The translations under genes were made by a program, and so were the position numbers. The notes under the pieces are model-generated. The model had not been told where the DNA came from. It was given only the letters and a program-made list of their open reading frames with translations, and searched no databases. 52,659 nt of DNA. It comes from Moniliella sp. 'wahieum'. Its lineage: Eukaryota. Positions 3,386 through 50,700 of the stretch are shown here, one piece after another. The stretch's first letter is position 1, and each line of letters starts with the position of its first letter. The DNA is taken from positions 62,001 to 114,659 of the forward strand of contig RSEE01000152.1 in NCBI GenBank assembly GCA_003971905.1, given 5' to 3'.

Positions 3386-3790
3386 CGGGGGGGGGGGGGG
3401 GGGAGCGGCGGGGCGGCTGCTGATCGGGGCGGGAGCGGCGAGGCGTGCTTGCGCGTGGGCGAGCGAGTGGCGCACCGATGGGAGCCCACGTGCAACTTTC
3501 AACGTTCAACTTGAACGTTCACCTGGCCCCACTGTGCGGGGCGGAAGGCGTGTGCGGAACAGAGATGCACCGAAGCAGCCCTGGCGGCTGGCCGGCGGCG
3601 GGGATGCAGGCAGGGCGCACACTGCCTCTGTGCCGGCGGGGCCGAGTGGGGGCAGCGTGGCTCAACTCAAACCAGAATAGGCAGGCCGCACCACAGCGCA
3701 CGCCAGGGGCCAGGGCCAGGTGTTGCAGCACCACCCACACTCCCGCTCCTCCCGCTCTCTCCCTCCTGCTTCTCCCCCTTGGCGCCGGCC

Positions 3791-5481
3791 ATGCGCGCCC
3801 TCCTGCGCGTCCTCCGCGCCCTCGCCATTGCCCTCGCCGTCCTCCTCGCCGCCCTCACCCTCGTCCTCCACGCCGCCTTTCTCGGCCTCACCCTCCTCCC
3901 CGCCCCGGCCCCCGCGCCTGGCCCCGCACTCGACACGGCCGTCTTAGCCCAGCTGCGCGCCGCCGCCCACGACCCGTCCAACCTCGTCCTCGACCCTGGC
4001 GGCGGCGGCGCCTTGGCCTCGCTCCCCACGCCCACTGGCGAGGCTGTCGTGTCGTGGTACACGCCCTCGTACGTCCCTCGTGGCACATGGGGCCTCACTC
4101 GTCCTGGTGCCCGTTTGGCCCCCGTCTTTGCTCATGCCCGTCAGCGTGCCCACAACGTCTCGGAGTACCCTGGGATGCCTGCACGCGAGCGCGAAACGTC
4201 ACGACGAACATTGTTGGCCTCGTTGGAGCACCGCGACTGGTTCTCCTTTTCGCTCCGGTGGAACGCCACGTTGCGCGCGCTCAGTCTCCGTCCGGCCCTG
4301 GCCACGTCGCTTGAGACGGACCAAATCGAGTGGCCTGCCACCTGGCTTCAATGTGCACCCTCTTCATCATCACCATCTTCGTCTTCGTCGTCTTCTTTGC
4401 CTGTGCCCGTTCCCACACTCCATTCGTCGACCGCGTGGGACGTGCCGTACCCTTCGACTATCATGACCTACCGCCCCTCGTCCGACGTGCGCCACCACCC
4501 CCGCTGTGGGTGCGTTTGGCACGGTGGGCAACCAGTTACTAGGCAACCTACTTGCCGTCTTGCCCCCCGCTGACGATGCGCTGCACTTTGCCCAGACGCG
4601 TGGGCTGGTGGGTGAACCATCGTCGGCGATTGTACCTGTGTATGCCCACTGTCGTCCGCTCACGTCGGGGGAAGGATTTCAATATGCCGAGTACGAACAA
4701 GAGATTCTAGCAGCTCAGGGTCAATCGACTGCTGTCCCACTCTCCCGACCCTCCACCCCAACCGGGCCCGGCCGAATCGAGATGCAAGTCTACCTGGCCG
4801 AACGGTTTCCGTCGTACAGCACCATGCTCTCTCTTCTCCTCGATGGGCAGGGAGAAGTGGAGCAAGTCATGTTGCCCAAGACGAGGGTGGTGCCCAGTGA
4901 GCCGCATCATCTAGTCTCGCACCCCAACAACGTGGTCCTCCCCTTCTTTGGGAGCCGATGCCCAAGCGAGTGACGTTACCAACCCCGCCACTGGCTTCTC
5001 GTCCCTTCCCAACGGCGTCGGTCTCGGGAAGAATTCGCCCCCTCTGCCGGTGAATGGTGCAAGGCCGAAATGGGGCTACGGGTCTGGGTACAACGGTGCG
5101 GTCTGTACCGGGTTAGGCGGCACGTACGCGCTGCGATCCGCTGTGCTTGGCTGGCTGGGCGCATGGGACTGGTGGTGGTTCCGAAAGGTAGTACGACCGT
5201 GTAGCAAGCTTCTCCGACTTGTGGTCAAGGTCAGTGTGGTGGTAGTGGCTGTGATTGGGGTGCTTGCGGTGCTGCGGTTGGTCGCGCGGAAACGAGGGCA
5301 CACACGTTCGGTCCCATTACCTGCACCGATTTCCTTCTCGTCGCACGTGCACCAAGGACGATGGGATGCACCCTGGGTTCGCATGTACCAACTGGTCGTC
5401 CCGCCATCCTCGAGTCATGAGCCAGACGTGTCCTGGCCCACCACGCGTGGCGAGCACGACCTTTCCGCGCCTAGGGGGTAG
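3791..5481 (+). CDS. Hypothetical membrane protein (N-terminal signal anchor, C-terminal TM helix)
   Basis: Three consecutive overlapping ORFs (3779-4573, 4506-4973, 4948-5481). It starts MRALLRVLRALAIALAVLLAALTLVLHAAFLGLTLL and has a late hydrophobic stretch VVKVSVVVVAVIGVLAVLRLV followed by RKR. No family recognised. The 3' end may extend to about 5850. Confidence 0.6.
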
Positions 5482-7379
5482 GCCAAGACGCACCCTACCC
5501 GCCGTACCCGGCGCACGAAAAGGGCTCTCCACCTTCCCCTCGCTCACCTCGGTCGCCCACGCAACGACGAACATCACCTACGCTTCGACGACCTGCGTCG
5601 TTGGCCAGCAGCCCAATTACGCCTGTCCTCCCTCGATCCGGGCGGAGACAAGTGACGTTGGCCTCGGCAACATTGGAGTGGGGGTGAGCCTAACTCTGGT
5701 CCTCCTGCCCTTTTCTCCCCTGAGTCTGATTCGGGCTGTGCCGCGCCGCCGCCGCTCGTGTCGGTCCGGTCCGATCCGTACCCTCCTACTCGTGAGGCCG
5801 ATTCGGCGCCGTTGCAGAGCCCGTTGCAAGGCCCGTTGCGTTGATGACAAGGTGCACGGTTGTGCCGCTTGTACTCCAAGCTTCGAACTTCAAGCTTCAA
5901 GCTTCATACATGATTAATGATTGCTCATCGAGCTACTGCAGCAGGGCGGTGCACCGTGCCCCTTCGCTCTAGCTGCTTTCTCATTCCAAGTCCTTAGTTC
6001 CGGCATGTTAGTTCTTGGTTTTTGGTTCTCGGTTCCTGGTCCCCTCTTCACTCGTTTCGTTCCACTCGAACGCTGCGGTGCCCGCTCGCTCGCGTCCACC
6101 CATACATGTCACATCTCACATGTCACATGTCATCAGTCTCATTTGCCTCCCACTCCACATGGCGCTGAATCGCTTCGCTCCCCGCGCCTCTGACGCCCCC
6201 AAAAAACAAGGGTCGCGCACCGACAGAGAAACAAAGTATGTATACATACCCTGTTTCGACCGTCTACACCTCCGCCCGCATACGTGCTACGTGTAGCTAG
6301 TCGTGTGCACCAAGGCGGCCAAGCGAGCGGGATGGAAGGGCGACAGGCGACAGGCATAGATGAATGGAGGCACCGTACCACTAGGTATACATGCGGTGTG
6401 GTGGTTTGTACAAAGGAGGAAAAGGATGTATACGTACAAGATTTTGCTCAGTTATCGCCAGCAACCGTATTAGTGACCGTCATAGTCAAAATGCCCCTTT
6501 TTAGCCATCACAAGAGCACCATTGGGATTGATCGATCCCCGCCGAGAAGCGGTGGGCAGCCGTCCGATCCAACACGGGCAGGACAAACGAGACAAAGAGA
6601 TGAAGTATTGTACTGTACTAGTTGCCATTGAATAAAAGGTTGCTTTTGAGCATCCGAGACGACCTTATATCGCTGGCAGTCACAGGAACGTCAAGAAACT
6701 AAAGCAGAAACAGGCACTGAATTTATATCACTTCAAAACGAAAGAGACACCACACAGTAAATCATTGAAGGCTCTCCGTGTATTAAAAGCGCCCTCTAGA
6801 AAGTCCGTTTGTACGCTCTTCCGCGATGAATCTCTCCTGATGCGTTCAATTCATCCTACTCATATCTTCGGGTCCAGATTCGAACTTCATCATTCGTAAA
6901 AGTCCATTGTTCAGTATAGCCAACTCTTCCCCCCGCGGGGAAGAACATTCATGTACAAGGATTATCCAGTCACGGTTTACCCTCTGGAGGCATGTGTTGG
7001 TCCGAACAGTAGGGGTCCGGACAGCAGAGATCTTGCTATAGTCTCACCCCCACAATGCCATCAGCGCCAATAGTACATGAAAATAGCAGCACGCGATCAC
7101 ACCTGAGTATCAACGTTGCGTTTCTGAGAGTGAAGAAGCGGGGAGGGAGAGTAAAAGAATGTTTGAAAAGAATAAGAGGGAATAGGGGCATGAGCTTGAC
7201 AGAATAATGGCAAGGGGAACCTGTGCTGAAGATCACACAGAACGCAACAGAAGCGGGGAATTCGTACGTAGCAATGGAGACAACAGAAACGCATTAAGAA
7301 TATCGCGCAAGAAAAAAAAACTGTTGTTGTGCCATCTCGAGGAGACAAAACGTCCGATGGGAAGCGCATGAGCGCCCAT

Positions 7380-10254: not shown

Positions 10255-11840
10255 TGTTCAAGACGTTCAAGCCTCAGGCCTCAGGCCTCAGGCCTCAGGT
10301 CTGAGGCTCAGCATGCTCGCGCTGAGACTCTCGTTCCTCTCCGCCGCGGGGCGCGCGAGAGCACCACGAGATCCGGCATATCAAATTCCCATCTCAAGGC
10401 GGAGCAACAAAGCTGTTGCTTGTGGCAGAGTGTTGCACACTCACATGCATCACAGTTCCTACCCGTCTGTATGGAGACTTCGTGGCTTGGGACTCCCAGC
10501 CTCTTCATTGACTCATTCGTCGCCGCGTAAAGAAAATGAGTCTTGTGCCTCCTGAGGTTCAGTCCTCAGGCTGAGGCCTAGGACCTGTTTTGAGGGTTGA
10601 AGTTCAAAGTTCTCAAGGTACGTTCAAGAGGCTTGCGGCCTGTGACGCGTGGACGCCTTATCGACCTGATCATTAATCAGTAACGTTAACCACATATCTA
10701 TCGGGTATACTGTCAACGTAGTCAACGTTTATACCCTGATAATCTCGATAATCGATAACTGAATATGTCTATCAACCTGCCGCCACACGTACACGTATAC
10801 CTCCGTACCCTATAGCGCCCAACCGTAGTGTTAGTTTTGCGTTCATGCTTCAAGCTTCAAGCTTCACAAGCACATTCACAAAAACACTCATTTAGATATG
10901 GTAGAAATCACGAGAAAATGCCTTTGCGGACTTCGGAGGCAATGGTGCGCATTTTGATGTTGAAGTTAACCACGTTAAACGAAGACCAGCAAGTTTGTAA
11001 GTCACGAGATCACCGGGATCATCAGCACTATAGATTAGCCGCTAATCACTACTAGTCATGCTAGTCACTAGAGTTACTAGACACTAGCCACTACTCAGAA
11101 GATTCAATATTCAGGCCTAGGCCTCAAAACGTCTTGCATCCGGCACCCACCCGCCACTAACACGCCACATATATACTCAGTCCTCACTCCCATCGGGGCC
11201 GTGCTCATCCCGATCATATCGATGATTCTTTCCTGTACACATATGTACACGTCGAGTGCTCACACATTAAAATAAACAGCTCCTTACTATATTAGCTTCA
11301 TTGAGATGTTTCCAATATCCATGTCTTGCTACACGCGCTCCCGGCAGGACGTTTGCAGCGGGGCAGGATCTGTCAAAGAGAGTGTCAAACAGTTGGACAG
11401 AAATGGTACATGGTGCATGGCAAGCCAACCGTGTGCGCGCCCTTCGCCACTCGAAACCTGAGGCGGGGTCTGAGGTGCCGGTGCCTGTTGTGAGCCTGTT
11501 GTGAGGCTTGATCGATGATGGATCACGATCAACGTCAACGTTCAACGTTCAACGTCCACATTCAACGTTCAACGTTCAACGTTTAACGTTCAACCCCGCA
11601 CCCTCCTGTGCAACACGTTGCGCGTGATGCCGTCGGTTGGATTCCGAGAGAGGCCGTACTTCCGGTGCCCATCATAGCGAGCGACCGCGGAGGTCCGCAG
11701 CGGTTTTGGCGGGGTACGGGCGGTACGGGCCACACTTGCCCAACTAAAGAACAGACAAGATCTCAAAAGCGGGTTTGCCCTACAGCGTTATACGAATAGT
11801 ATGAATGACATGCCACTGAGAGTGACTAGTGACTAGTGAC
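10255..11840. repeat. Cluster of 7-bp-period palindrome arrays (AGGCCT-C, AAGCTT-C, AACGTT-C, ACTAGT-G)
   Basis: AGGCCT at 10276/10283/10290; AAGCTT at 10852/10859; AACGTT at 11537/11544/11564/11571/11578/11585; ACTAGT at 11825/11832. Confidence 0.9.
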
Positions 11841-12722
11841 AGTGGATGAGCAAAGAGTTATTCGTTCTCGGGTCCATATAATCGAAAGGGCACTTACGTG
11901 AATTATGAGATGAATGGACGCAAGATATGGGTGTGGCCACTCATGTATCTGTATTCTGCATATTTCGTCGTGCACTGGCATCCATGATGAACGTAACCGA
12001 GCTACCACTGGGTTGGCAGGGCAGCACACCTTGGTAGGTCCTAGGCCCATCTGGTCACTTAACGTGCTTAATGTTCGCCAAGTCAGAGGATCACGGCCAT
12101 CGCCCACGTTCACTTGAGTTGGAGAACCAAGTTGGTCAGAGGTGAGTCCGAGGGGGAGGGGATACATAGGATACATGCTGCCCAGCCCTAGCCCAGCGGA
12201 CCCACAGTTATCTCGTGCAGCCGGATTGGCTCGGGCGCACGCCGGCCGTTCTGTTGCACCCCAAACCGAGAAAGAAAGATGGGAGAAAACATATACATTT
12301 TGCATATGCCAATGCTCTGCGTGTGCGAAGATGTGGAGCAATCGCCCAGCCCCCGTAGCACGAGGGTTTTGGGGAACAAGACTAAGAGAAAGGAAGAGAA
12401 AGGAGAAGATGGGAGAGGGGAAAGGGAAAAGGGAAAAGGGGAAAGAGGGGCACATGGCGGGAGTATAGGACAGCATGAGTAGAGTCAGCCTACATTGAGG
12501 GGATATTACAGCAGGACAAGGGAAAGAAGACTGGTACCCATGGGAACCTGTGTGGATGATCTCCACTAAATTGCATACGTCCTGCGTCACCTTGGCCCTC
12601 GCCCTCCCCACGCGCCCCACGCCCCTCGCCGCGCGCCGCGTCCAGCACCGACCAAGCTCACAAGCAAGACATGCGACAAAGGGGCCTGACGCTTCCACGT
12701 ACCACATCTACGTGATGGACAC

Positions 12723-14148: not shown

Positions 14149-15302
14149 GGTGGGGGTGGCGGGCAGAGGGACGGGTGGGTTCGTGCGCGAAGGTCCGAGT
14201 GCGGGAAGGCTGATGCGCCGGCTGACGCCGCTTACGCCGAAGACTGGGCATAGGAGAGTGCAGAGTGAAGATTGAACGTTGAACCTTTGCAGTCTGAACA
14301 CTGGATCCCACGCGTACCGAGTATCAAATTTCAAACACGAACCTTTGAACATTCATATTCAGCATCGACATTGCGTGTGCAATTTGGAATTGCGGGCCGT
14401 GCGCGTAGCTGCCAATATGTTTCCTCGGTGCAAACAGGCCACGTGGGTTGCGCCTCCCCCATTCGCTTACCGCTGCGGCTGGGGCATGCTATAAGCAACG
14501 CGTGCGAAGAAAGCAGGGCAGAAACACAGGAGAACAAAACAGCGGCCTATACAGGAGCCTGGTTACTTCTTCGCGAGCTCCTTCTGTGAATGCACACGTA
14601 CCCACCGGCGGTGCGTGTGGCCTGTTCTACAACTTCCTTGAAGTTTGACCGGTAACCGATACCCCTTTGTATGTCTCCCTCTCATCACGCGCGCGTCTAA
14701 TTCATCGCGTGTGATTGTTTCTCTCCCTCTGGTATATAAGGCACCACATTCCATGCAGCCTGAACGAATACCATTGGCATCCAAAAATCCCCCCTTGATT
14801 CTGACTTGCTTTCTATCGGCGGGCCATCCTCCTTTGTTGACCTCACATACACATATACATGTCAAACCGTCCTCCACGCGTCAACGGCCCTCGCTTGCTC
14901 TGGTAAGCGGTTCTCAGTACACTCTCATTCATATCGGTACAGTAATCGCCCATGGGTCGGTATGGCATTCCTACATCGACCCCACCGAGCATGAGCCCAT
15001 GGACGAAACGAACGTCAATGCAGATCCGGGTACCAGGCTTTTCGACATCCAAGAAAGGAAAAAGTTACATTTGCAGGGACATCCTACCCCTGCCACCAAC
15101 ACGATCCCGTAACTCGTGTGGCGGGCATGGGGGCGCAGAGAGTCAAACAAAGGGGGCGGGGGGGGAGAGAGATGACAGAGGGACAAGTTGCAGAACATCC
15201 TTTTCAGCATCGTTCTAAAAGTGCGGGACGAAGTAGAAATGACTCGATGACGGAGAGGTATATACTCCTCGCCCATTTGTCAAGGACAGCTGGGCAGCAC
15301 TG

Positions 15303-17665: not shown

Positions 17666-18965
17666 TTTATCGGAGAGCAAGTGGAGGATCCGTGATGGTG
17701 GTGACAAGCGAGTGCGACAGGAAGCGAGGGTGTCGAGGAACAGACGAGGCGGACGGGTGCAGACCGAGAGGAAGAAGAGCGACGGGGACAGCCAAGAAGC
17801 GCCAGCGTGCGTTTCTTCCGTCGTCGGCTGGGCCGCGGGGGAAGGGAGGGGGGGCAGGGGTGGTGGTGGTGGCGGTGGCGGTGGTGGCCGGAGTGGGGAG
17901 GGGGCGGTGGGGGAGCACAGACAGCGTCCAGCGCCCAGCGGCTGCGCGGACGTGCTGTGGGGGCAGCAACGTGCCAGGCGACCCAGAAGACCGGTAAGAC
18001 CGTCGTGGCCACTGGCGGGTGCAGCTCCGTCGCATAAAAAGCTTCTCTGCCCGCGCCGGCGATTAGGAGGAGCGCGTCGGCGGCAGCGTGGACGCCCAGC
18101 AGCAGGTGCGCATCCGCGCAACGGGATGGATCGAGCGCGCGTCGGGGGGGCTGCGCGGTGCCTCTGGCGGTGATGGCGACGGCCGCTGGGTGCGAGCCGG
18201 TGTGGCTGGCTTCCTTGACAGCAGACCCATAGTGCGCGGGGCAGGAGAGCGCACAGGAGGCTGTCTATGGTCGATGCATGTGACCCGAGTCGAATTGGCA
18301 ACTGATTTCAATTTGGGGTGCCGGTCCCTTAAGCGGCTGAAGCTTGGAGCTTCAAGTGAAGCTTCTCCTATGCACGCCTCCTGCCTCCTGCCTTGCCTGG
18401 CGTGTTGCCCAGCTGGAAGCAGCCGCGCGCAGGTCACCAGGTCACGGGGGGCGTCGCTCGTACCGACGATGACCAGTGGCCTTCTTGCGTTGGACATTCG
18501 TTGAATTTTGCCGGCACCGATCCGAATCGACGCCAGAGCATAGAGCGCCACAGCCAAAGCCGGATGATCGATGAAGCTCGCCCCCACCCCAACCGACACA
18601 TGCAACGGTAAGTAGCAGACAAGCCAGGTAACGGCATGGTAACCATAGTAGCCAAGCCAAACCGCCGTCTGGCGCCGTCGCATTCCGACCCGCTCGCATG
18701 GGTCTCTTCTGGCCTCGTGCCCGATCCGGACTCGAGACTCGTCTGAGTGCTCAGGGCCCGCCTCTGCACCGGGCTCCTTCCCGTCCCTCTCCCGAGCACT
18801 CTCGGCAAATGCACCAGCCGCAGCACGCCCAGGGCCAAGACTGTGCCACATGCCCGTGCGTATTTGCCTGTGGCCATGCTGTTGCGCGTTGCGCACGCCT
18901 TACGTATCGCCCATGCTTGCCTGGGCTTGACGCGTTGACGTTGAAAGAGACAGCCTATCGTATAT

Positions 18966-20010
18966 CAGGCTTCAAGCTTCAAGCTTCAGCGCCTCTTCAG
19001 CGCTCAGCGCCTCAGGCTGAGCGCTGAGGCTTAGCGCTAAGGCTTAGCCCTGAGGTTCTCAGACTGAGATCTCAGATCTCACCGGCACCCCACGCCACTG
19101 CGTCACCGGCCACCTGCTCCCCGTTCCCCCCCCAACAGTCTATATATATATAGGCCTTACCTGCTTTTTTGGCTCTCGTTCGCGTTACACGTTACTAGTA
19201 CTCACCCTATTATTCTCGCCAGCGCCATGCCCACGCATGGCCAAGCATGACGCCGTCTGCGGCCTGGCACCTAGTCCCCTATAGTGACCCTATAGTGACC
19301 CGCCAGTGACCCTACGACGGGAGGATCGATGAACGTGATAAACGCGCAGGCGCTCAGATGCTCAGGATGAACGATGAAGCTCATCGATTTAACCTACCGT
19401 ATAGTATTCAACGAATTCTTTATTCCTCTTCGGTTCCTCGCTCTTTCCGACTTCGCTCCTCTCCTCTTCTCTTCTCTCCCCTCCTCTCCCTCCAAGCTCC
19501 ACCTCCGCGCGGCTCAGGAACAATGAAGAAGTAAAACACCGTTGTCGGCTATAACCAGGTATACTATAGTAGCTATCGACAGCTTCTAACTCCTGAGACC
19601 CTAAGGCCTAAGGCTTAGGCTTGAAGGCTGCTCAGGCGCTCAGGGCTCAAGCTTGAAGGACACAGCGGAAATGCTCCAACAATTTGAAGCATGAAGCTTG
19701 AAGGTCAGCGCTCGCTGAGCGCTGAACGTGCTGAACGTTGAACGTACGCTGAACGTACGCTGAACGTACGCTGAACGTTGAACGTTGAACGTACACTGAT
19801 TCAACGTTGAACGTTACGTTGAACGAACCGCACCAATTCACACGCACTACACACACCCGAGATGTCTGTGCTGTGGCCTTTTGCATACCTGCCCCCCTCT
19901 CTTTGATCTCTCTGCCTCTCTCTGCCTCTCTGCCTCTCTATGCCTCTGTCGATGTGTTTTGCACCAGTGTTGCACCTCTCATTAGGCCTTAGTACTTAGT
20001 GGCCTTAGTA
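18966..20010. repeat. Cluster of 7-bp-period palindrome arrays upstream of the velvet gene
   Basis: AAGCTT, AGCGCT, AGATCT (19067/19074), AGGCCT, AACGTT and AGTACT units, plus an 11-bp derivative (gaacgtacgct)x3 at about 19740-19772. Confidence 0.9.
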
Positions 20011-20028
20011 CCTTTCACTTAAAGTCTA

Positions 20029-20630
20029 CTAGAAGACCACCGGGCCTACGGCCCGGTCAGCTGGGGCTTCGCCCCAGCTGTGCTGCGTCGCCACCTTAGC
20101 CACCGGTCCGCCTTCGCCACCGTAGCCACCGTTCCCCCCCATCGCCACCTTAGCCACCGGTCCACCGTCGCCATCGTAGCCTCCATTCCACGCTGGAGGA
20201 ATTTTATCACCCATGTGCATGGCTGAGCGCGCGGGGTGGGTTGCGGGCTGCGTCACCCGCGCAGCGAACGCAAACAAATAGGTAAGCATGACGTAAAGTA
20301 AAAAGGGGGTCTGCGATATAAAAAGAGAGATTAACGCGTAACGCGTAACGTCTATCGAATATCGCGACCCACAGACCGCTGTGTATCTCCACTGGCAGCA
20401 CCCTGGCCCAATTTGATTTCCCGGCAGAGGGATTCAACAGCTCATCTATCAGGCTCAGGCATGTGTGGGAAGTCACGTGATTTGTAGCTAATAGCTGGTA
20501 GTATAGTAGCAAACCAAAGTGCAGCGGTACTACAAAGTAAGACCATAGTAGACTACGTTGTAACGCGTAACGCGCAACGTACAACGGAACGGCGGCGGGT
20601 AAAAGTATGAAAAGTAAGTACAAGTAGTGA
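20029..20630 (-). mobile_element. Non-autonomous Helitron-like element, copy A
   Basis: The minus strand ends ...CAGCTGGGGC-GAA-GCCCCAGCTG ACCGGGCC-GTA-GGCCCGGT GGTCTT CTAG|T, i.e. two GC hairpins followed by CTAG and a T. It has an internal GGTGGCTA(A/C)GGTGGCG minisatellite. About 20029-20250 is homologous to copy B. The 5' end at 20630 (TCACTAC...) is a guess. Confidence 0.7.
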
Positions 20631-21359
20631 AAAACGGCATTTTCTCAGACAGGTATCCTCATCGGCCTCATCGGTCACTCGGTACTCACACCAGTACTCA
20701 GCAACTCAGTACTCGTATTCATACTCAGTCTTCAGTACGCTCAGCCGGAGGACTCAGACTGAGTATTCATCGTGCACGAAGAGTTGAACCTCCACAACTG
20801 TTTGCACTTGGTGGCCACCAGCAACCAACGTGATAATCTCCACCCCCTTTCTCTACCATTCACCATCTACCCTGCCCTCATCGCAGTGTCACCAGCTACG
20901 CGTATGAACTCGTTTGTTGGCAACTGACCCAAGAGCGTCGAAAGATGCGTTGTGCATCTGAGCATCGGTGTCGCTGAGGCCTAGTGAAACGTGAGAAAGT
21001 TGAACTCAAAAGGCTGAGGCTGTGACATGCGAACGTTGAACCAAGGAGCAGACGCGGTGTGCGCTACTGAAATGGACTGTCAAGTACGGTGAGAGTATGG
21101 AGGTCATGAGATCTAAGAGGCCGTGACACAAATCAACACTGACGGGTCCCCAACTCCGTACCCTGTGCCGTTCCTCACGCAGCAACAGGGCAAGTAATGG
21201 TTTGATGTTCTCGCTTGAGCATATTTGGGCTTGCCCTAGTCCAAGGTTGGCGCATTGCATTGCCTGAAGCTGTGCGGGTTCCGATGCTCAAGTTTGTGCG
21301 CTCCATCCCGGACTCCCACATCCACAAGAGATGACAGGGGAGGAGGAGAGGAGAGGAGA

Positions 21360-21484: not shown

Positions 21485-24400
21485 GAGAAGACACGATGGA
21501 ACCACAACTCGTTTGGAACGCCAGGGAGAAGAAGCTGTTTCCTGGAACAAGCGAATGCGACAAGAATACCAAGTATTAGGGGCACACTCAAGAACTTTTC
21601 TTTTCCCTTTGTCATGATATGACGACGCGAGAGGATACTAGCCACCGAGACGGCGAGCAAGATGTTTGGACACGGGAAAGAATTGACTGATGGTCTCATT
21701 GGAGATGGTTCGCCGCTCATGCCTACTATCCACGCGTGTATACATCCAGTTTGGAGGCGAATGGTGGCGCCAGAGGGTCCCGACCTATGGCGGCTCGCCT
21801 TGTTTTCTAATTGGTTTAGCACGAATACGCACATGATACACCGGATGAGCGAGCGGGATAGGCTCACCAGCGTTTCTTTGTCCCTGCCTTACGCTCCATC
21901 TCCCAAGCAAACGTATGTACGCACAGGGATACAAAATGGGAAACGCTTCGCCCCCCAAGCCCGCCCATGCAGCGTGTGCTGTCACCTCGTGCCAAAACCC
22001 ATTCGTGGATCCACAACCGACACGGCATTGCCATACTGCAGGTCAAACCCCTCTGATCAGTTTTCTTCATTCCGATCCAAACATCGAATGTGGCGCGAGT
22101 CGTGGGTGTGGATACGAAGGAACGGGTTAAGAGAAGGGTGCGCAGAACGGTAAACGTTAAACCTTCTCCGAGTCCTCGGCAAGTTTCTTCCAGTGTCCAA
22201 CATCTTTTTGGCACTCTCGGCACCGTGGTATCTGCGTGTCGTGGTGGCCAGAAGGAACAACGAGTGTTGCGTGGGCCCCCGATACTGGAACGTGGCATAC
22301 GGGGCTCCCCGCTTGCCTATTTGAGACGCCCATATGCATCAGCTCCTGATTCCCCCCGCGTATCCCACACGCGTAATAGGGCGGAGGTCTTCAGTTCTGT
22401 GTGCCAACACCTTCGGAAAGCCTTTGGCCTCTTCCCTGTCCCGAAGTCCCCAAGGTGTAGTCCACGTCCAGTATCCCTGATCCATGCAATAACTCTATCC
22501 TTTGCAAGGCCCCATCCCGGGCATAGTCCGTGTGCCTGGTCTCCCTCCACCGCCGCGTGCAACTACTGTGTTCCTACCTATGGCACGTGGAAAAGAGAGA
22601 GAGCCTCCGGCTTGCACAGCGTGTATGTCCTTGTCTCTCTTCCCTGGCGCCTTTCCCTCTCCTATTTTCTAACACTCGTCCTTCGAATCGGGCCATTCCG
22701 GGCCACCTCGCCGACCATGCGCTTCTCCCGGCCAAAGTACCTTCTTGTTATGCTTCTCCTTGCTTCCCAATATAATACCTCCTTCTCTTCCAGGCTGTCT
22801 CCGACCTCATCATCGTCTGTTTGCCCCCGTCCTCTCCCCTTGTCATACATGGTGCCTTTTTCTTTCGCATGCCTCTCCTCTTGGTACGCCTTTCACTGAG
22901 AGTGCTCGGGTCGGGTCATCTTCATCCTCCAGCATCGTCCCCCGTATCAAGACCCTCCTCTACCGTGGCATTTTGAAGAAGTGCATTGCATCAGCATTGG
23001 CCTTTGTTGCTGGGCGTATTCTCGCCGATCCGTTCAGACCTCTGGGTACCTGGCCGGCTATAGGCTTCTCTGCCATAGCGGCTCTACATGGAACGGGGGA
23101 CTGTGATCGAAAGGTGGACCAAGGAGCATCCCTTATTGATTATCGATCATCTCTCTCGACGCGGTTCAAGCTTGATGGGCAAAGTAAAAACACTTGATGG
23201 GCAAGGTAAAACGCTTGATGGGTAAAGTAAACCCCCGGTGTGCTCTAAATCCTATCATGAATCACTATGTAAACCCAGTATACAGCGAGGAGGATCCGAT
23301 CGCACTTGCCATGTCCCACGTCGAAATGCACACCTCTCCGATCCTCTGTATTATGCACGTGCCACATATCCATTTGGGAACCGAGCGTGGCGGGAGGGCC
23401 GCGGTTCAGCGGCTCAGCGCTGAACAAGGCACCTGGAAGCGACCGCCCAAGAGTATCGAAGATCCGAAGAGAAGGGAGCCGCGAACCAAGCATCCGCTGT
23501 TGGGAGTGTCTAGTTTGCGATCCCCATCCCGCATACGTATGGACTAGAAGACATGCTAGCAAACGTATCCTCGGTGCCGGTGAGCGGTGACTACACCCTA
23601 TTGTCCCTTGTTTGGTATGCGCTTAGCGCTTAGCGCTTATCCTGTTTTGACATGATCTGACACCTCCGAAGCCTTATAGGATACGTGGGTTGGTGTATAC
23701 ACCCGTGGCTTTCGAACCCTGTCTCTACGACCGGTAGGACCTGACGGGCCTGAGGCTGAGGGCGCTGAGAGGCCAGAGGACTTTTGTGTGTTGGAATAAG
23801 CGGGGCCCATAAATATTCAATGTCCTAAAAACGTTTTAAAATTCACCCCCCCCCCCCCAGCCACATCCCCGCGACCTGCATTGCTCTCCGTATTTACTAG
23901 GCTTCTCTCCACAATCATTAATCAACGTGCCTTGGGGGGTGCTTCCGCTTCTCGATTATCGAAGTTACTGCGCGGCGGCGATGAAGCTTCAAGTTCTTCA
24001 AGTTCAAGCTTCAAGCTCAATGTCCAATGTCAAGGGTGCGAGCGTTGGTGGGGGCGAGCCACTGTGGTGAGCCGGTGAATGAAGAGCGAAGAGTGTCTTT
24101 CTAGTGAAGCTCATCTCGAACCGTGTTGGAAATGCTAGTACGATGGATTCACAGGATTTACTCGAATTGTGAAAATGCAGAGTGAAAGGGATCAATTGCT
24201 GCCAGTGCGTATCTCCTGCATGTGCATGAGTGCTAAGCTGAGCGGCTCAGCTCTTATAAGTTGCTCTCATCCCCCTCTCCAACCTGCTCTTTATTCCTCT
24301 ACCCTGGATACATATCCTACCTGCCAACAATCTACACCAGCACAAAGAACAAGCATTTAAAGAAAAGAAACCATGGATCCATAGAAAGGCAGGACGAGAG

Positions 24401-26980: not shown

Positions 26981-27290
26981 CGGGCGGCGTGGGGCGGGCG
27001 GCGGCGCGCTGTTGGGGCAGGGGCGCACGGCAGCGCAGGTGCGCGCACGCGGCCGCCCGGAAGCGTTCGTGCCGGCTGGCCCGTCCGCAGCCCAGGCACA
27101 GGGGCGCTGTGTGGGGAGGCGTCGGCCGGGCGGAAAGCGACGGAGATAGCGGGGTGGTGCATCATGCATCATGCATCACTAGCACTTGCAATCCAATTAG
27201 TCCCCCCCTCTCGCGCCCCCAACCCAACCTCCACCAGCCCACACCAGCCCACACCTCCCCCTGTGCGCCTGGGCGTGGGCAGCAGGCACT

Positions 27291-27339: not shown

Positions 27340-27999
27340 GTCTGGCCCAGCCGCTCGCTGCGATCGCACCTCCCTCGCCCTCTTGTGGGCAAGACACCAG
27401 CCAAGACAGCGCCCGCCGCAGCCCAGGCCCATGCGTGTTGAAAGCCACGTCGCCAATGCGCTCCAGCACTCCGTCACATTCACAGCCCATGGAATGCAGC
27501 CGAACAGCAATAGGGAGCCTGCCACCCAGCACGCCATCTCTCCTCCCCGCCCACTTTCAGATCTAATCCATCTAACGAGTACACTCATCGTACTGAACGT
27601 ACTGACCCAACCAGCCAACCACGCGGTTCGTCACGTTCAGCTGCAGCGTTCTGCCAACCAGTCCCCGCTTCAACTTTCCCGCTTTGAGGTTTGTCCCATT
27701 GATATCTGTCTGCAGCGCCCATTGGCGCTCATCGACATCCACAGTAGTAGTATCATGTGAACAGAATCTGTGGTATAAATATGGTGCGGCACTGCCAAGG
27801 CACCTCCGGCCTCCCATCTCAACGACCGCCGCCAAAAGGTCCCGGTCAATGGTTCAACGTTCAACGTGATCGTTCAAGCAACCAAACGCCACCGTTTCGA
27901 CCCAACCAGAAGGAGCCTAGCGGGGCAGCTCCTAATAGAGCCATTGGTGTCATAATTAATGTTCAGGCAACCCACACGTGCCCTTCTCCAGAGAAGCCC

Positions 28000-29321
28000 T
28001 TGGGGCTGGCGAGTGGGAATGATACTGCGGAATCTCTATCTCTAGACCACGTCCATTTCATTGACAGAGCTTAAGGCTGGGACAGGGAGAACGCTACGTC
28101 TAAACCTAACCGTTCATCTTGCGGGGGTTACTTGGAAGCGCCACCAAGGTCAAGGAACCAGTGGGATCGCCAGGATATCAGGACCCTCCGGTTCTCGCCA
28201 TCCGGTCCCGTAATTAAAATCCCAAATGGGGTGTGCACCACACTTTTACATCAGCATCGCGTAAGCCACCGGGGCGCGGCCAGCCAGCAGCCAGCGCGTA
28301 TCGGTGATATTATTTTCCAGTGTGGAAGGTTCCAGCGTGGAACGGTGGACCGGGGGAACGGTGGCTACGGTGGTGATGGTGGGTCAGAGGAACGGTGGCT
28401 AAGGTGGCGACACAGCACCAAGCTGGGGCAAAGCCCCAGCTGACCGGGCCGTAGGCCCGGTGGTCCTCCTTGTGTGAAATTTATCAACGATGCTCAGTCC
28501 CACAGAATCGCAAAACCAAAACGAGACAGATGCCGTCAGTTCCATTGACCCAACAGCAAAACCGCTTGATCAGCTTGATCTCCATAAACATGTGGCGTGT
28601 TGCTATCTTTTGGATATCGTTCGACCCCAGGTGGACATTCCGATATGTCATTACCTTGCCAACAAAACAAGAGGGGGGAGGAAAGAGGCAAAGGGGAAGG
28701 AACGTACCTCGGCCGGCTTCTCCGCTCAGCCTGAGCGCTCAGTAAGCTCGGTCAATGTCTCGCTTCCTGTCACCTGACGTTACTTGTGTTTCGTCTTGAG
28801 CGGCCCGAAGACAAAATAGCGGCACGCAGGAAAGTCAGTCATGTTCGCACCGAGGAAAGGAGAGGCGCTAGTATCGAGTACTTCATCGCTGTCCGACCTG
28901 GTCGCATGCTACTCATCCCCCTCGAAGCCAGCGAAGGCAGCTCGAGCGGCCGCCTGCCTGCCCCCCGGTACCGAATGGTCGTATCGAGAAACACATCAAT
29001 GTTGAATCCCGATGGACATTTGATCGAGTCCGCCAAGGTCCGATCAATCTACGCTACCTATGTTACGGAAAGAGCACGCGCGAGCCCACTACGGGTTCTG
29101 ACGGAGCTTTGACGTTCAAGTACAGATTGTTGGATTTGGCCAAAAGAGGGAGCGGGGAACGAGTTCAAGTCAGCAGACTGGGCTTCGCCCCGTGTGCCTA
29201 CAGGGACCGTGGAAATCATCAGAGGGTGGGAAGGGTAGGAGAGGGACGATGACTGGGCTTGCGCCAGAGCGGTAGGGCGTGTGGAGACCTGGGAAGGGAC
29301 TGCCTGCGTACGCACATCCAT
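28000..29321 (-). pseudogene. NSE4: Degenerate Nse4/EID (SMC5/6 kleisin) homologue interrupted by a Helitron-like insertion
   Basis: Collinear Nse4-like blocks across frames: LAKSNNLYLNVKAPSEPVVGSRVL, FNIDVFLDTTIRY, GRTAMKYSILAP, VFGPLKTKHK*RQ, AEKPAE|..SNDIQK, IVDK [insertion] KSVVHT.HLGF*LRD, SIIPTR. Apparent stops at 28780-28782, 28726-28728 and 28214-28216. Recognised by eye only. Confidence 0.55.
28251..28472 (+). mobile_element. Non-autonomous Helitron-like element, copy B (222 bp)
   Basis: Proposed boundaries A|TC (28251) to CTTG|T (28472), with no TSD. It has the same double hairpin (28421-28441 and 28443-28461) and minisatellite as copy A, in the opposite orientation. The terminal CTAG is degenerate (CTTG). 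Confidence 0.68.
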
Positions 29322-31992: not shown

Positions 31993-32010
31993 CCCCCGCT
32001 GGCCAGAGGT

Positions 32011-36674: not shown

Positions 36675-36822
36675 GGTGGCTGATTTTTCCTTTGTTTTTT
36701 TTTTGAATTGGTTGGTGTGTGGTGCCGATGGTGGCGTTGGGGTGGTGGTGGTGACGGTGGGCGCCGATGGTGGTGCTGAGTATTGATCCTTTGCGCCAGT
36801 GGGGTGCTTCAGATTGTAGCTC

Positions 36823-37033
36823 TGTCACAGGCCTAGCTAGCGATGCTGGCGATGGTCGATGGAGATGGCATTCAAGAGCTAAGGAGAGCTAGAGCTATGG
36901 GCCTTGATAGGCTCCTGGCCTGGAGGCCAGTGGAAACCCGTGGAAGGGTCGGAACTCACTGCCCCGGTGCACTGTGTGGATCGGGCCACGTGTCACTGAA
37001 GGCCGATGGGCTCTAGACCACTGGTGGTCAACA
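36823..37033 (-). repeat. 5' LTR (211 bp)
   Basis: Identical to the 3' LTR except for two single-base homopolymer-length differences. Confidence 0.97.
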
Positions 37034-38972: not shown

Positions 38973-40145
38973 GCTGGCACGTGAAGCACGCCCATCAGCG
39001 GGAGCTGAGCATACGATGGATAGCATCCGTCCACGGTGTGGTGGTGGAGCGAGTGCGATTCTGCGGGCAGCATTTTTTCCTTAAATTCCCTGGATCCTTC
39101 TCATAACCCACATGATCGGCCATCCCGATTGTGTGGTGCGATTAGCTGTTTGCGTGAGCTCGGCCGCGTTGCCGTCGTAGGGAATGCGGGGAACGCGAAC
39201 GAGCGTCCATACTATGGCTTCAACCTCTTTCTTCCCATGCATCTTTTATCCCAACGTGAGTACTATTGTTGAGAAAACAAATCAATTCTTCTTCTTTTCA
39301 AACCTCCTCTATAGCTATCCCGGATGAGATGGCCATCCTTCCTTCGGGGCGTGGTTGCCGGGCCCGTAAAAGCCGTCGTAAGCGAGGAGATCGCAGACTG
39401 CTACAACGGTTATTGTACATGCTCATGGATGAGAGATGTCAACTGCTTTTTGCATGGAAGGAGTGGCCACTACAAGGGCCTTAATGTGGGCTAACTTTTT
39501 GGTTTCGGGATGAGAGCACAGTGAGGTGGGCGGGCGGGGGGGGACTAGGAGAGGGAAATGAAGGACTGGGAAAACCGTGCATGCAGCAGGAGGTACAACA
39601 AAGTGAAGGTGCGAGACAAGGGCCAGAGAAGACAGTTGAAACTATGCAAAGAGCGAGTAGAAGAGCCGACCGAACCACTCAGCCTCGTTGGCTCGGCCGC
39701 AGAGAGAAGGAAGGAAGACGAAATGCGCGGGAGAACACCGTTACCTGAACCTAGCCCCATTGGGGGACCCCCAACAGCAAGGGAAGAGAGAGGAAAAGAA
39801 GTGTTTTTGTCTCTGGCGTCATATATCATAGGAGTGGGGGGGGGGGGGGGGACTTTTGAGGCCAGACGAATGCAACCTTTGGAAACTGAGAGAGGATGGG
39901 AAAGAAGATGACCAAGATGACGGACTATTGTGATTGGGCACACCGGCCACAGCGCCTAACTAACCACATCCACATTTAGGGGCTGGACGAAGTAGGACGC
40001 CAGAGGGGCAGAGTTGCACGAGGCAGCCTTAGAGCAAGGGGGACCCTGGCTGAGGACCCCGGCAGCTCATTGGAGTAGTGGGAAAAGGTAGGGGAAAGAA
40101 CAGTCACCGGTGCTCCCAGAGGGGCGGGCCAAGCCGGAGGTTAGC

Positions 40146-43638: not shown

Positions 43639-45191
43639 AGGGCAGGTGGTGGTGACTTGGGTTTATGGGTTAAGGTTGCGATGGACAGCGGACAGAGATG
43701 CTTTCATCTTTCAACTTTCGGTCTTTCTTCGGTCTGAGCGGCCTCCTGGCCGATGCACCGCAGCAGCTGGTAGCAGCAGCAGCACCGATCGCCCGCCATC
43801 TGGGTCACCCATCGGGCTTTACGAAGTTTCAGCTCCACGCTGCACGATTAGATAGGCTTTGAAATTTGACATGTCACTAGTGCCACTTGAATATGATCAC
43901 CAGCTGCCCTGCCGTGCGCAGGCGCAGCAGGGGCCCTGCATGGCGCCCCAATCGCCCGTCTGTGGGCGTGTCCCAGCTCCAGCGCCAGTCACGCGTGTCA
44001 CATAGTGTCACATCCTGTCACATACAGGCCGCAGCTCCCCCCAGCCGCCACTCCATTCATTAATCGAACCATTAATCATGCACGGTGTCTGATGACATGG
44101 ATGACACACGAGGAAGTGCTATCGGATGACTACCCATCTTCATCACAGAGCATGGCTGCACAACTAATTTTGAAGCTTTTGAAGCTAGTTTTCCCGAGCG
44201 CCTTTTTGGAAGCTTGAGCTTGAGCACTGGAGGGGCAAAGGAACGCTGCGTCTACACCAGAAGTATATCGTACTGGACCCCGCGCGGGTTGGGACGCCCC
44301 TGGGGCTGCCGCCCGCCCCTACTCTTCGTCTCTATTTCGGAAACCATATGTAGCTGTGGTCGATCTAGACCCTATTGCACCTGCTTCGCCCTCAGGCTGA
44401 AGACTGGGAGCCTCAGTACTGAGCTGAACACGCACAATGTCAGACTTTGCCCGAGGGAAAACCCACGCCGACGTTGTCGGCGCTCACCGTGACTTCCCCC
44501 CACACATTGGGTATTGTATAGTGCACCCGCGCGCCAATGAGGCCTAGTAGGGAATGCTGACCCGCCCCGGGCCCCTATCCCATTTTCGTCGCTGTGGTCT
44601 CTGGTCCTAAAATGAGATAGTCGGGCTCTCTCGTCCGCATCGGTGCGACCGCCAGTGCTTCTATTTTTGATTTGGAGGAAAGAGACATATGTGGAGGGGG
44701 AGTTGCTGCTCATCACGTCCAAGCAGATCTGCCTTTCGTCCACAGGTTGGCGTTCCCATCGCCCTCGCGGGCACCTTCCTCACCTACCGACGGACATTCT
44801 CAGCAACAAGTCGCCATACTGATGGGACAGGTCCTAAGCAGCACTTATTGGACTCTCTTCTCTCGTCAAGGATCGCAATGAGATCCGTATAGGTAATACT
44901 GGGCATTGAACTTCTCGACGGAAATGGATGCCCCGTCGAGAGGATACAGACGACCAAGAGCTGGTTTCACCGTGGATTGAAGCTGGACTAAGACGACAGC
45001 TGGTAAGCTAGGAAATGCCTGGGTCTCAAACATAGATTGACGCAAGGATGATGGTACAACGAAAAGGACAAAAGTGGGAGGCAACTTAATGCTCCAAAGC
45101 GCGACTGGGCTCAAAGGAACATGGCGGGCATCATGCATCATGAGAACGATAGTAAGCTCGTACATCATCATTGATTATATCAATGGTCGAA

Positions 45192-47702: not shown

Positions 47703-50700
47703 CGTGCGCAGGACGGCACGAGGACGAGGACGAAGACGAGGACGAAGACGAGGACGAGCTGCGCAAAACGAGGGCGGCGGGGGTTGAGCTTCGCAGGACG
47801 AGTCGATCCTCCATTCTGCATTCACGCGCAAGCATCCCCGCCCGCAATCTCCGACGGGCCCTTGCGTCGCCGAGGCCAGCAGCCGGGCATTGCAATTTGA
47901 AACCACCCATGCCATCTCATCGATCATCCATCATCGGTCATGATCTGGCGCCTAGCTTGCTTTTCCGAGTTGACCAAAATGCGACGAGCAAGTTTCAAAG
48001 CACATTTTCCCATCGAGTGCGAAGTGCGCGGGCCAACTTTTGTCGAGCAAAAAGACCCATGTAACGGGCGAGGGTGGGGGTAGCCGAGCCCGGCCGAGCT
48101 CGGCCGAGCTTGTTCGGACGTTGAACGAACCCATGTAATCCGTTATGTCCAAACGTAGCATGTTCCCATCTCTATCTCGATCTATGCAGCTATGGGATCA
48201 AGTCCCGTTTTCGTGCGGCTGAGGGGATCTGTACGCGAGCTTCTGCGTCCCTGCATGATTTTAGCATACTTCAACTATTTTGGTCTTTAGTTTTGTACGC
48301 ACGTCAGCTCTGAGTCGAGCCACCGGATCTGGACGTCGAGCGTCTCGTTTTCGTTTGAGATTCTCCCCTCATGCCTTTACCCGATTTATAGCCGAGGGCG
48401 GAGAACCTCTGCCCTTTATTAGCTTGAGCACTTTTCTCGTTTTGACTGTTCCCGATTCTGGCTGAGTGTGGGAACCTTTTCTTACTTAGTTTGTGCTTCT
48501 TTCTGGGAGACAGTAATCTCGACTCCTTTCCCTTTCTTTCTTCGTTGTGTTGTCTATCCTTTCTAGATCCTGCATGTATAGCCTTGATCCGTCAGTTCCT
48601 TTGCTCTCCTAGCGGCGAATTTCGTCTTTGTCTCTTCTCGTCCACACATTCCGTCTGTTTCTCTCGTCTTTAGTCCTTGTACACCATCCTTTTCCAATGC
48701 ATCGTTGACCTGCCAGACAACTCCGCGGTGCGTTACTCTTAGTACTTGCGAACCAGTTGTCCCTCCGACCTGCTTCCAGCAACCCCCTCTTGGTCTCTTC
48801 CCGTATTTTTTTCGACCGGGCATCCATTGCCGTCGATGTCCAGCTTTCTGCCTTCTCTGTACGGATCCCGCGGCGATCCTATAAGAGGTGAGTTGTTCTG
48901 CCTCAGACGGAACCTGTCCTAACCTGTCTTTGTTTTGCCTACGGCAACTGAAGGGTTGGCTTGTTTCGGCGCATACTCACCCTTTTTTGCCACCCGAGCC
49001 GATACCCCAATTGATAGGCCTCACCTCGTCGTCGCTATAGTTCCCTTCGGATCTGCCAGTAGTGTTCGGGTTCGATCAATCGTGAATGGCCTGTCCTTCT
49101 CCACTCCAAAGGAAATCGCCCTTAAACCATGGGACGGGTTCTAGTCCGGGGCCCGCGGTGTGACGAGCCATCCTGCAACGTTCCATCTTTTTATACCAGT
49201 GACGATGATGTTGGGCAACTGCTGGTGGGCACCCAGTTCCGTTTTTCTCGTGTTGCCTCTGTCGGTGCGCAAACACGAGGAGAACAGGGCACAGTCCTGG
49301 CAGCAATTGGAGGGCTCAACTTCGGTGTTGAAGATGAAGCCCCGCGGGGGTCGCTTAGCATCCTGGTTGTTCTTACATCAATCAACTACTGTGGTCGATG
49401 GACTGACCCGCAGCGCACCCTGTTGCAACCCTTTCTTACTGTTTTGTTGTCCTGGGCACTGTTCCCGACAACAACAATAAGGGCAACGCTACTGCGGATA
49501 TGGCTATTGCCACTTCCCATTCCCTGTGGGATGGGAGAGGAAACATGTCTCCCCAAGCGAGAAGCAAGCTCAAACCGAAACTTTCTCCCCGCGACCTCCC
49601 TTTTGTTGCGAGGAAGAGGAGAGGAACGCCAGTGTAGTGGTATTCAGCGGTTCAGGAGATCAAAGCCTTGTCCAAGCAGGCTAATCCTAAGGAAGGAAGC
49701 ATTGGAAAATCATGGCGGGGTTACGGTGTAACGTCTTCCCTCTCAGCAGTGTAGGAAAGGCAACACAACTATAGCCGTGCTCCCGCCACCGCATATAGTA
49801 AGAACATTTCCAGCCGCCAGTTTTGCTCTACGTGGCAACGATGGTTTGAGGATGCCGGAAGGAGCGGAATGAGGTGGTCGGAGATGGGTTCTGGTTCAGC
49901 CATGCCCACCTCTTAAACCTGTGTATCCTCTTTTTCTCTCGAGAGTCGCTGCCCCGGGTTTTGGGAGATATATACGAGGCGAGGGAACCACAGTATACTT
50001 ACCTTCCGATACTAGTATATACAGCTCTAACCTCCCGCCTTGCCACCCGACGTGGGAGGTTGCTGTCCCCTTTCTCCCGCGGTAGCAAGATAAGCAATTA
50101 TACCCTGATGCCCCTCTCCCCCCCGGTTCGGACTTGCCACTTACGGGGCCAAACCAAACCGTCGTCAGCCGGCCCAAGGCGCAGCACAGCCCAACGTTCC
50201 GGCCCTGCTATCACCTCTCTCGTTCTCGTTCTCGTTCTCGTTCCACGTTCCGCGTTGCACAGCGCGGCGAGGGGCTCGTCGATGGCAGCCAGACGGAGCA
50301 GCAGTAGCCCCCCCCCTGCCTATAGGCGTCCCATGCACAGCCCCACCTCTCCTTTCCCCGCTCACCTTTCACCTTTCACCCTCCAACCTTCAACCTTCAA
50401 GCTTCGTTTCAAGCTTCGCTTCAAGTTTTACCCTGCCACCTGCTACCCGCAACGGTGCACCTGGCCATCCACCCCCCCTTGGTGGGCCTTGGCTTGGGTC
50501 GGCGTAGTTCGAGGGGGTGGCGGGGCAAGAGAAGGGGGGTGTAGTCTACGTCTAGATCTCATCCCAGCTAGCTACCTCTCGGACCCTGAGGCGGGGAGGG
50601 GACGAGACGCACGCGATCGGCGCGTCTCCCAGCCGAGCGCAGGGCCCGACCCACGTGGCACGTGGCCAGGCGAGCCGCTCGCGACCTGCCACGGATCGAC

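Follow-up and report, generated by a model that had tools for sequence, protein, structure and literature searches.

What process writes short palindromic heptamers, often in tandem, between the genes of a fungal genome is the question raised by a 52,659-bp stretch of Moniliella sp. 'wahieum' (contig RSEE01000152.1, positions 62,001 to 114,659; G+C 58%), the whole of which is referred to here as the window. Six-base palindromes of the form A-NNNN-T, each followed by one spacer base, recur in this DNA with a period of 7 bp, and an initial annotation offered two explanations for them: a binding or chromatin code, read as TNA-N4-TNA at gene boundaries, or a lineage-specific mutational or repair process. 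Our analysis favors an account of the latter type. We consider it probable, although well short of certain, that the heptamers are footprints (hereafter scars) left by the excision of a cut-and-paste DNA transposon which duplicates 7 bp of target and leaves hairpins on its flanks, the element itself lying outside the window and repeated insertion building the arrays. The process is most likely of a known kind, and it is the density and regularity of its traces that are unusual here.

The arrays depart strongly from chance expectation. Exact 7-bp tandems of at least 14 bases account for 42 entries in the window, two of which are G homopolymers; a 6-bp palindrome lies inside 23 of the 42, and is of the A....T type in 21, while 19 of the tandems are non-palindromic. 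Ten different A....T hexamers are represented, and arrays reach approximately ten copies. Identical 6-bp palindromes at a spacing of 7 bp occurred 18 times, whereas 100 dinucleotide-preserving shuffles averaged 0.28 and never exceeded 2. Echoes were seen at 14 bp (6 vs 0.26) and 21 bp (4 vs 0.28); other spacings were near background, with no other clear peak. Within the window, comparison with shuffled sequence, a check that the initial annotation suggested for the whole genome, therefore confirms both the enrichment and its specific 7-bp spacing. The arrays also lie at the positions first listed for them, with two minor amendments: the AAGCTT copies near 50400 are present but stand 12 bp apart, the adjoining 7-bp tandems TCACCTT and TCAACCT being non-palindromic, and at 20690-20715 the AGTACT units are present but decayed.

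The rule that underlies these arrays is narrower than the initial annotation recognized. The triplet TNA (N being any base), followed by a 4-bp palindrome and the same TNA, was found at 54 sites which together use 15 of the 16 possible cores, CCGG alone being unused. In 50 of the 54 the core is made up of the dinucleotide immediately after the second TNA and the reverse complement of that dinucleotide, and is in this sense templated by the flank. Written in full, the unit is TNA-xy + y'x' + TNA-xy, five bases repeated around two inverted bases (primes denoting complements), and on the other strand the mirror form reads ab-TNA-b'a'-ab-TNA. These forms number 35 and 31, respectively, where 200 shuffles led us to expect 0.155 and 0.145, and strand symmetry thus holds. 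The rule is recovered from either side: among 41 five-base repeats that start with TNA and enclose a 2-bp gap, the gap is the reverse complement of xy in 35, and of the 52 five-base repeats, whatever their start, whose last two bases are reverse-complemented in the 2-bp gap, 35 start with TNA and the next class has 4 members. Rule-conforming events total 61, at 37 loci, with the triplets TCA (33), TGA (17), TAA (7) and TTA (4). Twenty-four events are isolated, having no other event within 30 bp, and the pre-event target reconstructed for these was non-palindromic in 22 and palindromic in two; the palindromes were therefore made by the event, rather than selected from pre-existing sequence. No clear target preference beyond T-N-A emerged among the 24 isolated events. 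The central base was C or G in 84% of them and in 50 of all 61 events, compared with 70% of TNA sites outside open reading frames (ORFs).

The length of the duplication, and the manner in which its copies are joined, can be read from the less common products. Joints were tabulated as ab-TNA-[p bases of xy y'x'][q bases of b'a' ab]-TNA-xy. At seven sites (10258, 10740, 20659, 28567, 19723, 44093, and 44171), a full 7-mer nnTNAnn is followed by two bases which are the reverse complement of its adjoining end, and then by the same 7-mer, an arrangement with an expectation of 0.01. Because seven bases are repeated at these seven sites, the duplication must be of 7 bp centered on N, and duplications of 3 bp or 5 bp are excluded. 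When all 7-bp repeats separated by 2 bp were listed blind, 14 entries had a reverse-complement gap, and T-N-A was central in seven of these. When the spectrum was restricted to non-palindromic targets and unambiguous assignments, with expectations taken from shuffles, the leading class kept one 4-base palindrome and had the other side trimmed by two bases (12 + 13 observed, 0.10 + 0.07 expected). Joints with three bases kept (5 + 3 observed, 0.29 + 0.28 expected), with the full duplication and two palindromic (P) bases (3 + 2 observed, 0.01 + 0.01 expected), and with exact doubling of the target (1 observed, 0.10 expected) were also recorded, and none with both palindromes kept (0 observed, 0.00 expected). 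Classes keeping three bases, or 4 + 1 or 4 + 2 bases, were above shuffle level, and variant joints of 6, 8, and 9 bp are built in the same way as those of 7 bp. Even palindromes that lie flush with the duplication edge number 34 + 6, whereas joints of the Ac/Ds type, in which the edge base is complemented, number 0, 0, 0, and 1 in four classes when adapted to a 7-bp duplication; a fifth such class has 5 members, among them array ends equally compatible with the flush form (11830 was checked by eye). On the strength of this disparity, the scars look more like coding joints of the RAG/Transib type than classical hAT joints. Direct duplications of target-site size, P nucleotides, and a spectrum of joints with small deletions, which are features of flank-hairpin excision footprints, are all present. 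Together, the flank-templated cores, the non-palindromic targets, and the spectrum of related joints support the lineage-specific mutational or repair process that had been put forward as one of two options. Separately, the adjacent TCACCTT and TCAACCT tandems at 50362-50400 have T-N-A in the unit and no palindrome, and could represent either simple slippage or exact doubling of the target with no P bases.

With stop-free ORFs of at least 150 amino acids as a crude proxy for coding DNA, which leaves 27% of the window uncovered, 23 of the 37 loci fall in that uncovered fraction, and the other 14 are found at the edges of ORFs or within ORFs that have no Pfam match. None of the 37 is within a Pfam-matched domain stretch, and none is within the copia-type retroelement at 31784-37033, which bears out the remark that no such arrays were seen in intact coding regions or in the copia element. 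Judged by ORF orientation, clusters of scars appear to lie between convergent 3' ends (5873-6132, 10256-11844, and 23619-24020) as well as upstream of genes (14273-14333, 18928-20672, and 43860-44225); as they occur on both the 5' and the 3' sides of genes, scars fill intergenic DNA generally, and do not mark promoters or terminators. Their density is approximately 0.7 loci per kb (near one per 1.4 kb), rising to approximately 1.6 per kb outside long ORFs. As a control we used 80 metagenome contigs that encode INO1 relatives (680,034 bp, with a G+C content of 45-53% among those containing scar-form sites), in which 14 seven-base sites and one nine-base site were found, as against 50 and 7 in the window; per base, such sites are approximately 50-fold more frequent in the window, which speaks for lineage specificity. 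The two nearest INO1 contigs (14.8 kb; 78-80% identity across the domain matched) contain no scars, a metagenome scan with the KRE6-like ORF of the window returned no relative, and no look-alike stretch was found in the other genomes compared.

Loop-free perfect palindromes at joints are the hallmark of covalently closed hairpins that were opened away from the tip, as established for V(D)J coding ends and hAT footprints, and a fixed-length duplication centered on a symmetric T-N-A is the hallmark of staggered strand transfer by a symmetric transposase. We propose a scheme in which the hairpins, the position of their opening, the re-insertion, and the chemistry are all deduced from the sequence patterns described above. 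An element would integrate with a 7-bp stagger centered on T-N-A at ab-TNA-xy, duplicating 7 bp; at excision, both flanks would be sealed as covalently closed hairpins flush with the edge of the duplication. A host nuclease would then open each hairpin approximately 2 nt off its tip, so that each flank would end in a self-complementary 3' overhang of 4 nt (xy y'x' in one case, b'a' ab in the other). If end joining mostly retained one overhang and lost the other, the product would be ab-TNA-xy-y'x'-TNA-xy or its mirror, that is, a net insertion of 7 bp with a new central 4-bp palindrome. Such a scar would hold a perfectly symmetric target, y'x'-TNA-xy, and a further round of insertion and excision could add one more unit whichever overhang was kept; arrays would be pure because each re-insertion into the symmetric 7-mer adds an identical unit. 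Replication slippage probably lengthens existing arrays too, and the two processes together would give the hexamer A-NNNN-T plus one spacer base. Local re-insertion would account for clusters of mixed cores within 150 bp (18928-19081; 19685-19825), and selection against 7-bp frameshifts, perhaps aided by a preference for open chromatin, would confine scars to non-coding DNA.

Each component of this scheme has precedents. Flank hairpins with P-nucleotide footprints form an established model, in which hAT, Transib, RAG1, and the MULE Muta1 are named (sections of PMC5873905 and PMC5499845), and the latter source reports that Transib and RAG1 form flank hairpins. A close likeness is to V(D)J joining by RAG and to Transib excision: the even palindromes of the scars are likewise centered exactly on the flank edge, typically with two bases per side, as if opened 2 nt off the tip, and a minor spectrum of trimmed joints is present. 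Flush nicking is typical of RAG. The scars differ from RAG and Transib products in that their duplication is of 7 bp rather than 5 bp, in their T-N-A-centered target, and in having built up tandem arrays in the germline genome; the window showed no Transib-like gene. Footprints of Ac/Ds and other hAT elements, which are known also in Saccharomyces cerevisiae and Candida albicans, share with the scars the retention of both duplication copies, short deletions, P-nucleotide palindromes, and a few predominant joint types (passages of PMC5873905). According to the same passages, Ac/Ds palindromes have as their center the complement of the element-adjacent base, whereas those of the scars are flush. 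The normal hAT duplication is, moreover, 8 bp rather than 7 bp, and classical Ac/Ds chemistry is thus contradicted on both counts.

Duplications of 7 bp are themselves known from basidiomycetes, in hAT7 of rust fungi, which groups with Ac/Tam3-like hAT elements, and in Kyakuja of Laccaria (excerpts of PMC12730594). These cut-and-paste elements share with the scars their host phylum and their duplication length, the latter deduced for the scars from the 9-bp class; Pfam searches of 274 ORF translations revealed no hAT7 or Kyakuja gene in the window, and the supplement text of PMC12730594 contains no entry for Ustilaginomycotina ('Ustilag' has 0 occurrences). Galileo, a P-superfamily element of Drosophila, duplicates the 7-bp target GTANTAC (PMC4168063). 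This odd-length palindromic target with a free central base is a precedent for that of the scars, although its center is A-N-T and not T-N-A, and the element is from an animal. The footprint, too, would differ in kind. P-type elements leave some of their own terminal sequence at the joint when they excise, rather than palindromes templated by the flank. Muta1 forms a flank hairpin in vitro, and more than 90% of its excisions in yeast are precise (portions of PMC5499845); duplications in Muta1 and other MULEs are of 8-9 bp, and such precise excision leaves few footprints. For the T1 transposon of Cryptococcus, the consulted part of PMC9942834 gives neither a duplication length nor footprints.

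Several results weigh against a transposon origin. Two scans of the window for inverted ends flanked by nnTNAnn returned only array-derived matches, and with flanking repeats of 3, 5, 7, 8, or 9 bp the matches were array-derived or due to chance. No DNA-transposase family of Pfam was matched among the 274 ORF translations, in which copia reverse transcriptase and integrase were the only mobile-element domains recognized, and no resident family of elements with both the same target duplication and a transposase was encountered within the window. The classical Ac/Ds joint geometry differs from that of the scars, and the hairpin chemistry that we suggest is derived from sequence alone. Joints with both overhangs kept, at a spacing of 11 bp, were neither found nor expected (0 and 0), and the nearest approach, an 11-bp unit TGAACGTACGC present three times in a heptamer cluster at approximately 19739-19775, is one base off such a joint (ACGT + GCGC), and later amplification may have multiplied it. 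Target 7-mers doubled exactly, with no P bases, are rare (a single case). Any model requires near-constant opening of hairpins off the tip. To our knowledge, a 7-bp duplication, a T-N-A center, and flush hairpins are combined in no known lineage.

A bolder proposition, which we regard as tentative and clearly less likely than the general reading, is that the scars derive from an uncharacterized transposon lineage, or a domesticated, cargo-free relative of one, which combines a T-N-A-centered stagger of 7 bp with flush hairpins of the RAG/Transib kind, and which has been highly active in a poorly sampled, smut-related fungus. If so, scars would make up a visible share of intergenic DNA, and their re-targeting would constitute a distinct route, other than slippage, by which palindromic tandem repeats are born. 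The initial annotation knew of no description of the pattern, and our literature searches, which returned mostly listings and abstracts, likewise turned up none that joins a 7-bp T-N-A target, flush joints with two P bases, this density, and palindromic heptamer arrays. The general mechanism of hairpin-type footprints and P nucleotides is well known; for its combination in this genome we found no description.

Explanations that dispense with a mobile element must reproduce the same joints. A host nuclease or domesticated transposase might break nnTNAnn with a 7-nt stagger, after which fill-in, hairpin formation or fold-back, and rejoining would generate the same 7-bp units. The very high density of scars (37 loci in 52.7 kb), in a stretch with few visible DNA transposons and neither an element nor a transposase domain, is in keeping with this suggestion. 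Yet a 7-bp duplication is what staggered strand transfer classically produces, and exact doubling, to be expected of simple fill-in, is rare (1 vs 25 P-type joints). We know of no free nuclease which leaves 7-nt staggered ends with hairpins, and consider this explanation unlikely. Ordinary microsatellite behavior, in which hairpin-prone palindromic heptamers expand by replication slippage and only surviving units are seen, draws support from arrays of approximately ten copies and from the 19 of 42 exact tandems that are non-palindromic and thus attest to 7-bp slippage in this DNA. Slippage cannot, however, create the first unit: founders arose on single-copy targets, non-palindromic in 22 of 24 isolated events, and added two inverted bases, where slippage would gain from an existing tandem and obey no rule of unit sequence. 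It also leaves unexplained the TNA requirement, the 9-bp class, the mixed cores within 150 bp, and the approximately 50-fold lower density in other INO1-bearing contigs, and as a full account it is very improbable. The binding or structural code, in which a dimeric factor or chromatin feature would read TNA-N4-TNA at gene boundaries and the units would be under selection, accords with the location of sites in non-coding DNA and with T-N-A in 7-bp register. It is hard to reconcile with the use of 15 of 16 cores, and with the lack of a fixed recognition sequence where N is any base; no binding requirement predicts that the neighboring two bases should dictate the core in 50 of 54 sites, or that variant joints of 6, 8, and 9 bp should share one construction, and sites appear, from ORF orientation, beside both the 3' and the 5' ends of genes. 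This half of the initial annotation is therefore unsupported, and we give it almost no credence, although some scars might conceivably serve secondarily as binding sites.

Two further alternatives retain a transposon and change its duplication. The target duplication of Transib is 5 bp, and a Transib-like element could duplicate TNAxy and leave two P nucleotides on one side only, which would match the commonest product, a 5-bp repeat with a 2-bp inverted gap. At seven sites, however, all seven bases are repeated around two P bases (0.01 expected), which is impossible for a 5-bp duplication, and T-N-A would probably sit off-center in such a duplication, an odd arrangement for a symmetric transposase dimer. 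The flank hairpins formed by Transib (PMC5499845, in part) remain an attraction of this version, to which we nevertheless assign only a slight chance. As to shorter duplications, an element with inverted ends that duplicated 3 bp of TNA, and left two bases of each end behind in the manner of Tc1/mariner footprints, would give a 4-bp palindrome automatically. Duplications of 3 bp with the sequence TNA or TWA are typical of the IS1031 and PIF/Harbinger groups. Excision by such elements would be mostly precise or would leave element-end bases, and hence a few fixed cores unrelated to the flank, whereas in 50 of 54 sites the core is the flanking dinucleotide with its reverse complement; the 9-bp class, in addition, repeats seven bases and not three. 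The 3-bp duplications given for Harbinger in PMC12730594 favor this alternative, which in view of the cores is nonetheless highly improbable.

Should excision of a transposon with a 7-bp duplication be the correct reading, the genome would constitute a dense and readable record of past transposition by an element that is now rare or lost. Its scars would report the stagger of the enzyme (7 bp), the target (T-N-A at the dyad), and the opening of hairpins by the host (2 nt off the tip), and would supply a concrete example in which cycles of insertion and excision, and not slippage, make tandem repeats and perfect palindromes de novo. As the units adjoin genes, they could alter regulation. For annotation, arrays of this kind should not be taken for binding-site codes or ordinary microsatellites. 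The individual loci are given in Table 1.

Table 1. Putative scar loci in the window, with coordinates counted from its first base.
Position	Strand	Feature
1678..1727	.	Two isolated scars: TCA-CATG-TCA-CA; GGTTACA + TG + GTTACA (right copy 1 base short)
3499..3508	.	Isolated scar TCA-ACGT-TCA-AC, non-palindromic target TT-TCA-AC
5873..5920	.	TCAAGCT-unit array, then TGA-TTAA-TGA-TT scar
6104..6132	.	TCACATG-unit array (hexamer ACATGT)
10256..10311	.	GTTCAAG + AC + GTTCAAG (full 7-bp duplication, 2 palindromic bases), then TCAGGCC-unit array
10738..10758	.	GATAATC + TC + GATAATC, then TAA-TCGA-TAA unit
10842..10866	.	TCAAGCT-unit array
11104..11113	.	Isolated mirror-form scar AT-TCA-ATAT-TCA
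11525..11594	.	Longest array, ~10 TCAACGT units, some decayed
11821..11844	.	TGACTAG-unit array (hexamer ACTAGT)
14273..14333	.	Two isolated scars TGA-ACGT-TGA-AC, TCA-AATT-TCA-AA; upstream of NTF2 domain of minus-strand NTF2/RRM gene
18928..19081	.	Mixed cluster within ~150 bp: CTTGACG + CG + TTGACG, TCAAGCT x3, TCAGCGC, TGAGCGC, TCAGATC
19600..19642	.	TAAGGCC tandem + GC-TCA-GGCGC-TCA-GG joint
19685..19825	.	Composite cluster: TGA-AGCT-TGA, TGA-GCGC-TGA, GCTGAAC + GT + GCTGAAC, TGAACGT tandems, 11-bp TGAACGTACGC x3
19982..19998	.	TTA-GGCC-TTA-GTAC-TTA-GT: adjacent scars, two different cores
20332..20350	.	TAACGCG-unit array (hexamer ACGCGT)
20560..20579	.	Second TAACGCG tandem
20657..20672	.	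CCTCATC + GG + CCTCATC (full 7-bp duplication, 2 palindromic bases)
22151..22160	.	Isolated scar TAA-ACGT-TAA-AC
23619..23639	.	TTAGCGC-unit array (hexamer AGCGCT)
23915..24020	.	TCA-TTAA-TCA scar + imperfect TCAAGCT units
27158..27178	.	TCATGCA-unit array (hexamer ATGCAT)
27852..27867	.	TCAACGT tandem, target already palindromic
28565..28580	.	CTTGATC + AG + CTTGATC (full 7-bp duplication, 2 palindromic bases)
39819..39828	.	Isolated scar TCA-TATA-TCA-TA
43860..43869	.	Isolated mirror-form scar TT-TGA-AATT-TGA
44091..44106	.	GATGACA + TG + GATGACA (full 7-bp duplication, 2 palindromic bases)
44169..44225	.	TTTGAAG + CT + TTTGAAG; CT-TGA-GCT-TGA joint keeping 3 bases
45128..45142	.	TCATGCA tandem just past 3' end of minus-strand PXB/DUF3818 gene ORF
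47917..47926	.	Isolated scar TCA-TCGA-TCA-TC, 5' edge of PXB/DUF3818 gene ORF

The genes among which these loci lie were recognized from Pfam matches on stop-free ORFs, and include a fungal Zn2Cys6 factor, a Velvet protein, KRE6/SKN1, and myo-inositol-1-phosphate synthase, together with an NTF2/RRM protein, a PXB/DUF3818 protein, an AGC-type kinase, and the copia-type retroelement. The 274 translations searched are drawn from 291 of at least 90 amino acids, the remaining 17 overlapping the copia element or being near-identical, within a few bases' difference, to ORFs that were scanned. The proteins nearest to the KRE6-like ORF are from Ustilaginomycotina (Tilletiaria, Violaceomyces, Exobasidium, Tilletia, and Ustilago), at approximately 40% identity, and one further match at 81% identity covers a third of the query; the host is accordingly read as a poorly sampled basidiomycete related to the smuts. 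Coding frames in the window could not be told apart by codon-position GC, which was tried for gene finding, and Rfam and tRNA scans of the window gave no match.

The copia-type element lies on the minus strand and is bounded by long terminal repeats (LTRs) of approximately 210 bp, which differ solely by two 1-bp indels in alignment; as there is no 7-bp indel between them, the pair is uninformative as a dated internal control. Its RVT_2, rve, Pol_BBD, and SH3_retrovirus matches are in different frames, such that the coding region may be interrupted, and no 5-bp target duplication was evident at its inspected boundaries. A dispersed non-coding repeat of approximately 170-190 bp is present as two inverted copies, at 20032-20200 (plus strand) and 28320-28468 (minus strand), the first 48 nt of which are 96% identical. 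Two GC-rich stem-loops occupy one end of the repeat, its interior contains CGCCACC(G/T)TAGCCACCG sub-repeats, and it showed no inverted ends, target duplication, or Rfam or tRNA match. Other simple repeats comprise homopolymers of 17 G (3387-3403) and 16 G (39836-39851), and hexamer microsatellites of approximately 25 copies of GGAGAA (21339-21486) and approximately 21 copies of TGGGAA (1425-1550). Finally, a 15-bp tandem repeat, GGTGGTCTTGGAACC, of approximately 11 copies at 16348-16510, lies within the long minus-strand ORF that has the Velvet match, and probably encodes a repetitive, low-complexity protein segment.

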